Of a stretch of 64,000 nucleotides of DNA, positions 45,557 through 54,151 are shown one piece after another. A program made the position numbers and the translations under genes. The stretch is from NCBI RefSeq assembly GCF_024502345.1, contig NZ_JALDNN010000001.1, one strand, 5' to 3'. The first letter of the stretch is position 1; each line of letters begins with the position of its first letter. Below the pieces are notes generated by a model. It made no database searches. It was given only the letters and a program-made list of their open reading frames with translations, and was not told the origin of the DNA. This DNA is from Escherichia coli (GTDB taxonomy: Bacteria > Pseudomonadota > Gammaproteobacteria > Enterobacterales > Enterobacteriaceae).

Positions 45557-45593
45557 TGCCGGATGCGGCGTGAACGCTTTATCCGGCCTACAA
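45557..45593. repeat. REP (repetitive extragenic palindrome) element
   Basis: gccggatgcggcgtgaacgctttatccggcctaca matches the canonical E. coli REP consensus. Confidence 0.75.
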
Positions 45594-45613: not shown

Positions 45614-45700
45614 CAGTCCCCTCGCCCCACCGGGGAGAGGGTTAGGGTGAGGGGGAACCCTCGGCGCCATGCCAACATTCGCCAACATTCTCCCTCACTC
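45614..45700. repeat. GC-rich extragenic repeat element (ccc ctc gcc cca ... ggg tga ggg type), copy 1
   Basis: gtcccctcgccccaccggggagagggttagggtgaggggg; near-exact reverse complement of 53090..53131. Confidence 0.6.
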
Positions 45701-51644: not shown

Positions 51645-52820
51645 TTAATGCAATCCAAAAACGTTCAACATGGTAGAAAGTTTGACGCCTGTTTCGCGCC
51701 ACTCACCCAACGGTGACGACGCAGGCACAATCCCCGCTCCGGCAAACAGACGCACCTGATTTTCCCGCAGCTTCGCGCAGCGGATGGTCACCACCCATTC
51801 GCCGTTACCTTCGCTGTCACACCAACCCACAATGCCGCCAAACAGTTCGCGGTCGAATGGCTCCAGTTCAGCAATAACCTGGGTCGCGGCCTGATGCGGG
51901 AAACCGCTCAGCGCGGGGGTTGGATGCAGCAGACAGGCCAGAGTCAGTGCGTTTTCTTGCGAATTCGCTTTACCTTCAAAGGGAGTTGCGAGATGCCACA
52001 GCGTCGGCGTGGTAATCAATTGTGGAGAGGAGGGAACGTGTAACTCACTACTGCGTTCGCGCAGTACCTCTTTCATCGCCTGAGTCACCAGTTCATGTTC
52101 ATGGCGATCTTTTTCTGACGCCAGCAGACGATTACCCGCTTCGCGATCGAGCACTTCATCCGGCTGACGACGCGCGGAACCGGCTAACGGAATGGAGCTA
52201 AAACGCTCGCCGTCTTTACGTAGCAGCAGTTCCGGGCTGGCCCCCAGCAGGACGCCACCATCAGCCAGCGGGACATGGAAGTTGTAACTAACCGGGTTTT
52301 GCGCAATCAACCGTTCCAGCAATACGCCACTATCAATGGCGGCGTCAGTGGTGATATCAATCAATCGTGACAACACCACTTTGTCGACCTGCGGCGTGGC
52401 GGTAAGTGCGGCGGCGCGGGCAACCATCTGTTCAAACGTGGTTTGTTCAGGAATTGCCTGGCGTTCCACCACGTTCAGCGACTGGCTGCGGGTAAAACGG
52501 CGGGCTGAGGTCTGTTTTTCCTGGCGGGAGAACGACTGCCAGGATTCGGGAATATACAGCGACGAAGGCTGACGTGGATCGAAGGGAATCGCCCCGACCA
52601 TCACCGGATTTTTGATGCCCTGCGCTTTGGCATCGGCAAACAGCGCGGCGAGTTTTTGCTGGAAGGGACTGTCGGGCGAATCCCCGTTCACAGCCGGTTC
52701 ATCGAAGCGGGCGAAACATCCTGACGTCGTAAAACTGCGGTACGGCGACATAAAGAAAAAGCGATTGGGCGCAAGTGTTGCCATGGTCTGCTGTACTTCC
52801 TCAGCCAGTGACGTATCCAT
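51645..52820 (-). CDS. entC: isochorismate synthase
   Basis: 391 aa from [18 protein letters not shown]. Confidence 0.95.
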
Positions 52821-52848
52821 ATCATCCTCCACAAAATGATAAAGGCTT

Positions 52849-52867
52849 TAATAATGATTATCATTTA
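52849..52867. promoter_or_regulatory. Fur box in entC / fepB divergent promoter region
   Basis: aataatgattatcatttat is a close match to the GATAATGATAATCATTATC consensus. Confidence 0.55.
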
Positions 52868-53026
52868 TATTTTCGGTCGCTAACCTAAAAGCAAACGCGC
52901 ACTATGTCAACTCTTGAGGTAACGCAATCTGCAACTCGGGGTTGCATCTGGTTGTGGTTACAATGAAAATGAGAAGCATTATTGATGGATTCGCATAAGC
53001 GCAATGTGATGTCCTGCGCCGTTCTG

Positions 53027-53131
53027 CCCCCTCTCCCTTCCAGGGTGAGGGCTGGGGTGAGGGTTAATGTTCGCACCAGTGCTGGCTGTTCCCCTCACCC
53101 TAACCCTCTCCCCAAAGGGGCGAGGGGACGG
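53027..53131. repeat. GC-rich extragenic repeat element, copy 2, with an adjacent partial copy
   Basis: cccctcaccctaaccctctccccaaaggggcgaggggac (reverse complement of copy 1) preceded by ccctctcccttccagggtgagggctggggtgaggg. Confidence 0.6.
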
Positions 53132-53194
53132 ATTGTGCGCTTTGTCGAATTTGTCATTACGCCCTTAACCTTATTAATAACAGGAAGCTGATTT

Positions 53195-54151
53195 GTGAGA
53201 CTCGCCCCGCTCTACCGCAACGCCCTTCTAGTAACAGGACTTTTGCTTTCAGGAATAGCCGCAGTTCAGGCCGCTGACTGGCCGCGTCAGATTACTGACA
53301 GCCGTGGCACACATACACTGGAAAGCCAGCCGCAGCGTATTGTTTCCACCAGCGTCACCCTGACCGGCTCACTGCTGGCGATTGATGCTCCGGTGATCGC
53401 CAGCGGCGCGACCACGCCGAATAACCGCGTCGCGGATGACCAGGGCTTTTTACGCCAGTGGAGCAAGGTGGCGAAAGAACGCAAACTGCAACGGCTCTAT
53501 ATCGGCGAACCGAGCGCCGAAGCCGTTGCCGCGCAAATGCCGGATCTGATTTTAATTAGCGCAACCAGCGGGGATTCGGCGCTGGCACTGTATGATCAGC
53601 TTTCCACCATCGCCCCGACATTAATCATCAATTACGACGACAAAAGCTGGCAGTCGCTGTTAACGCAGCTTGGCGAAATTACCGGGCATGAGAAACAAGC
53701 GGCAGAGCGGATTGCACAGTTTGATAAGCAACTGGCAGCGGCGAAAGAGCAAATCAAATTACCGCCGCAGCCGGTCACTGCCATTGTCTATACCGCCGCT
53801 GCACACAGTGCCAATCTCTGGACGCCGGAATCAGCACAAGGGCAGATGCTGGAACAACTCGGCTTTACGCTGGCGAAGTTGCCCGCAGGGTTAAACGCCA
53901 GCCAAAGCCAGGGCAAACGCCATGACATCATTCAGCTTGGTGGGGAAAATCTGGCTGCGGGGTTAAACGGTGAATCGCTATTCCTGTTCGCTGGTGATCA
54001 GAAAGATGCCGATGCGATTTATGCCAATCCACTGCTCGCGCACCTTCCCGCAGTACAAAACAAGCAGGTTTATGCGCTGGGAACCGAGACGTTCCGTCTG
54101 GATTACTACAGCGCCACGCAAGTGCTGGAACGACTTAAGGCGCTGTTTTAA
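53195..54151 (+). CDS. fepB: periplasmic ferric enterobactin-binding protein
   Basis: 318 aa, GTG start, signal peptide [26 protein letters not shown]. Confidence 0.95.

Follow-up and report, generated by a model that had tools for sequence, protein, structure and literature searches.

Several systems described in bacteria resemble the repeat pair analysed here. REP elements are mostly found at 3' ends and stabilise or attenuate mRNAs from there, whereas the Correia/NEMIS elements of Neisseria and the ERIC/IRU elements of enterobacteria are MITE-like repeats inserted into transcribed leaders, whose terminal inverted repeats are defined and which duplicate a TA target; for Correia elements, RNase III processing and the creation of promoters have been documented. 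The 5'UTR of ompA is an example of a 5'-terminal stem-loop that stabilises an mRNA. Closest of all is a family of E. coli intergenic repeats whose name BoxC reportedly goes back to Bachellier et al. and whose members, under the name PIT elements, are said to have been described by Hoyne and Maher. Holder et al. (2015, PMC4666352) treated their TMECO motif as one and the same with the PIT elements and with this BoxC repeat, which dates from the 1990s, defined it by the pattern 5'-CCCTCNCCC N3-6 GGGNGAGGG N3 GGGNGAGGG-3' and listed 23 MG1655 copies in Table 1, and an independent survey recovered BoxC, as an E. coli repeat already described, in approximately 22 copies. Five K-12 sites carry inverted TMECO pairs, always composed of one type A and one type B unit, the family as a whole has no association with gene function, and published tests of PIT elements revealed neither promoter nor terminator activity, nor any influence on RNA polymerase (summarised in PMC4666352).

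Here we analysed a window of 64,000 nucleotides of Escherichia coli DNA, i.e., the whole stretch under study, which contains the enterobactin locus with entE followed by entC on the minus strand. Window position x corresponds to position 677705 - x of NC_000913.3. A first-pass annotation, made from the sequence alone, had described two tandem GC-rich repeat units at 52985-53131, between the divergent entC and fepB promoters and inside a long fepB leader whose structure they might affect, and had proposed a comparison with the K-12 spacer. That comparison gave 100% identity of the entC-fepB spacer to K-12-type strains, because K-12 itself carries the element. The cstA-ybdD spacer of the window differs from MG1655 at approximately 8 of 200 positions, so that the window DNA is not MG1655 itself. 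The features of the locus, together with a third copy of the repeat elsewhere in the window, are as follows.

45619-45653, plus strand: third BoxC/TMECO copy in the window, in the cstA-ybdD spacer, adjoining a REP element at ~45558 (regular-expression match)
minus strand, same locus: entS
ATG at 52820, minus strand: entC (open reading frame and strain comparison)
52821-53194: entC-fepB spacer, 374 bp
52825-52873: entC footprint
52958-52988 (-20 to +11): published Fur footprint at the fepB operator (PMC2189734, Table 3)
52966-52983: Fur box 1, AAAATGAGAAGCATTATT (PMC5020551)
52978-53194, plus strand: fepB 5' untranslated leader, 217 nt, its start deduced from the construct of PMC4666370
52980-53003: left arm of the outer inverted repeat
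52982-53167: palindromic insertion carrying the repeat pair, 186 bp (absence from ST131 and O157:H7, junction comparison)
52983-53156, plus strand: predicted imperfect RNA hairpin, 174 nt (minimum free energy fold)
53029-53064, plus strand: BoxC/PIT/TMECO unit, K-12 TMECO no. 8, type B (TMECO regular expression, identity to the Table 1 entry)
53065-53090: 26-nt spacer between the units, the predicted apical part of the long hairpin (sequence and RNA folds)
53091-53126, minus strand: BoxC/PIT/TMECO unit, K-12 TMECO no. 7, type A, one mismatch (TMECO regular expression, identity to the Table 1 entry)
53136-53159: right arm of the outer inverted repeat, a flank common to other double-BoxC elements (alignment of alx-sstT, ygfF-gcvP and gldA-yijF)
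53182-53197, plus strand: Shine-Dalgarno sequence AGGAAG and fepB GTG start codon, the published RyhB pairing region, outside the repeat element
GTG start at 53195, plus strand: fepB

Both quoted strings were found in the window (unit 1, 53029-53063; unit 2, 53091-53129), flanked as described by entC on the minus and fepB on the plus strand. Their relatedness as GC-rich repeats was borne out, and both fit one published repeat pattern. The TMECO regular expression matched at 53029-53063 (+), 53092-53126 (-) and 45619-45653 (+). Letter for letter, the two units are copies no. 8 (MG1655 624676-624641) and no. 7 (624579-624614) of Table 1 in PMC4666352, an identity that the first-pass annotation had missed. 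Supplementary Table S2 of the same paper places no. 7 and no. 8 between fepB and entC, labelling them only as '5' of entC/E/B/A/H', and the pair is one of the five K-12 sites with inverted units. The unit on the plus strand reads CCCTCTCCC-TTCCA-GGGTGAGGG-CTG-GGGTGAGGG-T and the unit on the minus strand CCCTCGCCC-CTTTG-GGGAGAGGG-TTA-GGGTGAGGG-G; accordingly, no. 7 has the TTA loop of type A and no. 8 the CTG that the authors assign to type B, and the two lie on opposite strands in an intergenic region, as in the other BoxC pairs. At the level of the units we found no difference from the described family, of which they are exact members. Judged by their sequence, the units are thus an inverted pair of an already catalogued E. 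coli intergenic repeat, and what this study adds to the TMECO catalogue is a 186-bp insertion polarised by outgroups, its position at +5 of the fepB mRNA and an approximately 51/49 split of alleles in 5426 genomes.

The units are far from a chance occurrence, since the motif CCCTCTCCC-N3-8-GGGNGAGGG was found three times in the window against 0.00 expected and GGGTGAGGG five times against 0.29 expected. A search with the 186-bp sequence returned a median of 16 places per genome, as for a dispersed multicopy family, and similar double-unit elements with 83-87% identity over ~120-140 nt were present at alx-sstT, ygfF-gcvP and gldA-yijF. An Rfam 15 scan of the region gave no family at the gathering threshold, the best match scoring 28.6 bits against a threshold of 72; sub-threshold matches to microRNA precursors were dismissed as generic matches to a GC-rich hairpin. 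The term tandem does not describe the arrangement. The units are on opposite strands, Tandem Repeats Finder reported no array apart from a trivial 6-nt period with a score of 30, and the two are related chiefly as an inverted repeat, the arms of which measure 41 nt (53023-53063 and 53092-53132, 76% complementary), which is enclosed by an outer inverted repeat (52980-53003 and 53136-53159; 24 nt, 71% complementary). The direct similarity between the units (23 nt, 74%, at a spacing of 75 nt) goes back solely to the small palindrome within each unit. Three mechanically called ORFs run across the element, at 52982-53191 (+, 69 aa), 52885-53076 (-, 63 aa) and 52979-53098 (-, 39 aa); the TTG start of the longest is the first base of the insert and lacks a ribosome-binding site, and all three are probably artefacts of the repeat.

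The range 52985-53131 given by the first-pass annotation does contain both units, yet the actual feature is wider, namely an indel of 186 bp at 52982-53167. The entC-fepB spacer of ST131 and O157:H7 is 188 bp long compared with 374 bp here, and the junctions read GCA[TTA]TTGATGG...ACGCCC[TTA]ACC in the filled and GCA[TTA]AC in the empty site. As TTA stands at both junctions, the insertion can equally be written as 52979-53164. In a biased sample of 5426 complete E. coli genomes the insert was present in 2754 and the uninterrupted site, which leaves a leader of 31 nt, in 2662 (2333 by a stricter search), so that these two clean alleles together account for 5416 genomes (99.8%). Among the strains named in the matches, the insert is present in K-12, BL21, ECOR29 and an O121 strain and absent from ST131 and O157:H7. 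The 45-nt left flank (52982-53026) occurs once per genome and in exactly the 2754 genomes with the insert. Nearly all long alleles are at least 99% identical, the allele of E. whittamii being the only divergent one. The long allele of strain SJ2D (L040) has lost 6 bp (ACCCTA) within unit no. 7 and differs by a substitution nearby, which indicates that units decay in place.

Outside E. coli, a scan of one genome per species recovered the conserved promoter word in 29 contigs. The short, uninterrupted leader was found in E. albertii, Escherichia sp. MOD1-EC7003, Escherichia L017, approximately 20 Citrobacter species and Siccibacter colletis; S. turicensis was left out of this list of empty sites, as the sequence of its locus ends too soon for a decision. 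With all of these outgroups empty, the insert is the derived state. To the right of the junction the empty E. coli alleles read CTTCAT and E. albertii CTTCAC, compared with CCTTAT in the filled alleles, and this outgroup-like motif common to the empty alleles points to ancestral haplotypes and not to excisions. E. whittamii has the same insert at the same site and with the same flanks (L027, ~5358-5500), in which the BoxC pair has collapsed to GCCCCTCGAAGGTTGGGGCGAGGGG, a simple hairpin. Such a collapse corresponds to the 'palindrome effect' described by Holder et al. (PMC4666352). The presence of the insert in this species implies either an old age with repeated replacement or a transfer between species. 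In Citrobacter amalonaticus S646 (L018, ~2941-3060) the fepB leader is interrupted at the corresponding TTA|A by a different palindromic insert of ~90 bp, which other C. amalonaticus genomes (L023, L024, L036) lack; the very start of the fepB transcript may be a preferred place for small insertions. We considered a relationship of the S646 insert to the BoxC flanks, for which the similarity was not convincing, and an Rfam scan of this insert found nothing.

Regarding the position of the element in the transcript, Wang et al. (2015) cloned the 'entire 5' UTR' of fepB as -217 to +24 (PMC4666370, main text and Table S1, plasmid pJXW036), which places the start at 52978; this start was taken from the literature, because the fepB promoter hexamers fall below the consensus cut-off of our promoter scan. 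The insertion begins 4 nt downstream of it, with +5 as its first position in the mRNA; the units, which span about +52 to +149, are consequently located in the fepB leader instead of between the promoters. The first-pass annotation had therefore correctly put the repeats into a long fepB leader, with a published MG1655 5'UTR of 217 nt and a Fur footprint consistent with its start, and misplaced them with respect to the promoters, as they are downstream of the fepB promoter and inside the transcript. The footprint of Brickman et al. was used as tabulated in PMC2189734, with the older NC_000913 numbering converted (+778) to the window. The junction 52981|52982 falls within this footprint, whose final 7 nt are insert sequence. 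Fur box 1 also spans the junction and takes its last two nucleotides from the insert (...CATTATT in the filled, ...CATTAAC in the empty allele). Both alleles agree with the 19-nt Fur-box consensus at 15 of 19 positions in a count by eye, and by this comparison the Fur operator appears to be essentially unchanged by the insert. RyhB pairs at the Shine-Dalgarno sequence and start codon of fepB and controls the gene post-transcriptionally (PMC4666370); this pairing region lies downstream of the insert. Reporter constructs with the whole intergenic region and with the 217-nt leader alone each drive expression (PMC5020551, PMC4666370).

At the RNA level, the insert folds into one imperfect hairpin (52983-53156) with a predicted energy of -91.3 kcal/mol (z = -6.9), and none of 200 shuffled sequences was as stable. 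Folding from the transcription start gave the same hairpin after 5 unpaired 5' nucleotides, with 53157 to the start codon remaining outside, and the 31-nt leader of strains with the empty site had no significant structure. The folds predict Watson-Crick hairpins only. The suggestion of the first-pass annotation that the repeats might affect leader structure thus holds for the prediction, albeit trivially, as they dominate the predicted leader fold. No U-run follows the stem, the hairpin being succeeded by UUACGCCCUUAA, which gives no sign of an intrinsic terminator or attenuator; moreover, the promoter and terminator scan of 52780-53260 returned no terminator-like sites, and together with the absence of an Rfam family match this speaks against a dedicated function. 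Taken together, the insertion would have lengthened the fepB leader from 31 to 217 nt, and in the mRNA the units would pair with each other and the flanks with each other to form one hairpin of 174 nt that begins 5 nt from the 5' end and would leave the Shine-Dalgarno sequence and RyhB site free.

With REP elements and BIMEs the repeat pair has in common that these are short, GC-rich, palindromic and dispersed intergenic repeats which are often co-transcribed with their neighbours; in addition, a double-BoxC element and a REP pair alternate between strains in the gldA-yijF slot, and a REP element stands beside the third BoxC copy. They differ in belonging to another sequence family, the REP consensus (GCCGGATGCGGCG-type palindrome) being absent from 52982-53167 and found at 45558 only. 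The Correia/NEMIS and ERIC/IRU elements are alike in being small, palindromic, located in untranslated regions, able to form long mRNA hairpins and present in some strains and absent from others, but the defined ends, TA duplication, RNase III processing and promoter creation described above are not established for BoxC. As to the stabilisers of the ompA type, the likeness lies in a stable hairpin, predicted in the case of fepB, very near the 5' end of an E. coli mRNA, whereas 5 unpaired nucleotides precede the predicted fepB stem, so that the resemblance would concern the possible mode of action only. Work of the Belasco laboratory reportedly sets a limit on the unpaired 5' nucleotides that stem-loop protection tolerates, for which five may be too many.

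Other BoxC loci vary between strains as well. In the gldA-yijF spacer, strain Ecol_316 has a double-BoxC element (L007, 560-775) where K-12 and APEC O2-211 have a REP pair (BIME; L041 and L042, 190-480), with the common sequence resuming at TCTGAAACT, and by sequence comparison two unrelated repeat families alternate in this intergenic slot. Three alleles were seen at alx-sstT (L005, 540-960; L038, 172-518; L039, 180-818), i.e., a full BoxC pair, a form collapsed by deletion between two CCCTCTCCC direct repeats in ATCC 25922, and an unrelated GC-rich replacement of ~350 bp in SCEC020023, which had no match in an Rfam scan. In the alternative allele of ygfF-gcvP a whole side is missing. In the cstA-ybdD copy of MG1655 the third block reads GGGTGAGAG, so that this copy does not fit the TMECO pattern and has no entry in the K-12 catalogue.

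Considering the origin of the element, a local tandem duplication or slippage is scarcely credible. The 23-nt direct similarity at 75-nt spacing is what such an event would leave behind, but it is refuted by the opposite orientation of the units and by near-identical copies at distant loci, in line with the missing array in Tandem Repeats Finder. We regard as possible, though rather doubtful, an origin of the 186-bp unit by transposition, as a miniature non-autonomous element of the MITE type for which TTA/TA served as target. A short, non-coding palindrome whose terminal inverted repeats are imperfect would suit such an element, TTA flanks both sides of a clean presence/absence polymorphism, the sites in the outgroups are empty, and in one C. 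amalonaticus genome a small palindromic insert of another kind occupies this TTA|A. However, the terminal inverted repeats (24 nt, 71%) end ~8 nt before the right junction, a 3-nt duplication can arise by chance, and the 45-nt left flank occurs at the fepB locus only, so that the whole unit including its ends is not itself repeated in the genome. Furthermore, clean empty sites as found at fepB in E. coli and the outgroups were sought at alx-sstT, gldA-yijF and ygfF-gcvP and none was seen, the alternative alleles there being collapsed or replaced forms. We know of no transposase for the BoxC element, and in the published survey the family was not associated with mobile elements (PMC4666352). 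Similarly tentative is the view of Holder et al. when applied to this locus, namely that the element acts as DNA, each unit being able to form an intrastrand (purine-motif) triplex and the pair a cruciform, and thereby constitutes a hotspot at which replication stalls and deletions and rearrangements arise. Oligonucleotides with the TMECO sequence fold into stable triplexes in vitro and strains differ more at TMECO loci (PMC4666352), and collapsed forms deleted between CCCTCTCCC direct repeats at alx-sstT (ATCC 25922) and in the fepB leader of E. whittamii, as well as the 6-bp deletion in unit no. 7 of strain SJ2D, fit this picture. In vivo DMS footprinting, on the other hand, did not support a stable triplex (PMC4666352), and one of two clean alleles in 5416 of 5426 genomes is unlike an unstable site. 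Instability at the DNA level is in any case compatible with a passenger role of the element.

With respect to function, the hairpin might be a working cis-regulatory part of the leader that tunes the stability or translation of the fepB mRNA, for instance by hindering 5'-end-dependent decay through RNase E as a 5'-proximal stem-loop, or as a substrate of RNase III. The element is transcribed, its very stable predicted structure starts 5 nt from the 5' end and fepB is controlled post-transcriptionally by RyhB; we nevertheless consider this quite improbable, because a 31-nt leader suffices in half of E. coli and in all outgroups, the same repeat stands at many unrelated loci in no functional pattern, the RyhB and Fur sites are outside the element, and long alleles which are nearly all at least 99% identical leave no covariation to test. 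Taken as a whole, the evidence is best explained by an inverted BoxC pair on a 186-bp insertion 4 nt past the fepB start that is most probably a tolerated passenger. This rests on a family without association with gene function, on the empty sites in half of E. coli and all outgroups, on the position of the Fur and RyhB sites, on the inactivity of PIT elements in published tests and on the good expression of constructs with the whole spacer or the 217-nt leader. A dedicated regulatory device is unlikely, and any effect would most plausibly, if speculatively, be a modest change of mRNA half-life through the 5'-proximal stem-loop, by way of 5'-end-dependent decay or RNase III processing. Two observations could speak against a passenger: the ~50/50 split persisting across lineages could reflect selection rather than neutrality, and the insert in E. 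whittamii implies one of the two histories named above, old age with repeated replacement or interspecies transfer.

In itself, the finding matters little, given that the family dates from the 1990s and both copies are listed individually in the 2015 catalogue, and it is an ordinary one, because the repeat is known and about half of the E. coli genomes do without the insert. It would weigh more if the insert were not neutral, i.e., if the 174-nt hairpin and the altered 3' edge of the Fur operator changed the half-life of the fepB mRNA or its iron responsiveness and if BoxC had spread by insertion, which we hold to be unlikely. In that case, the ~51/49 split would be a natural regulatory polymorphism of ferric-enterobactin uptake, and the locus would provide a clean, outgroup-polarised case of BoxC spreading by insertion and not by decay only. 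The copies labelled '5' of entC/E/B/A/H' in the 2015 catalogue are actually transcribed as part of fepB, and the locus offers an unusually clean pair of filled and empty sites for studying the effect of a BoxC pair on an mRNA. Finally, the long fepB leader of K-12, on which reporter and expression vectors have drawn, owes its length to a lineage-specific repeat insertion, and results on fepB leader structure or post-transcriptional control obtained in K-12 need not hold where the leader has 31 nt, as in ST131, O157:H7 and others.
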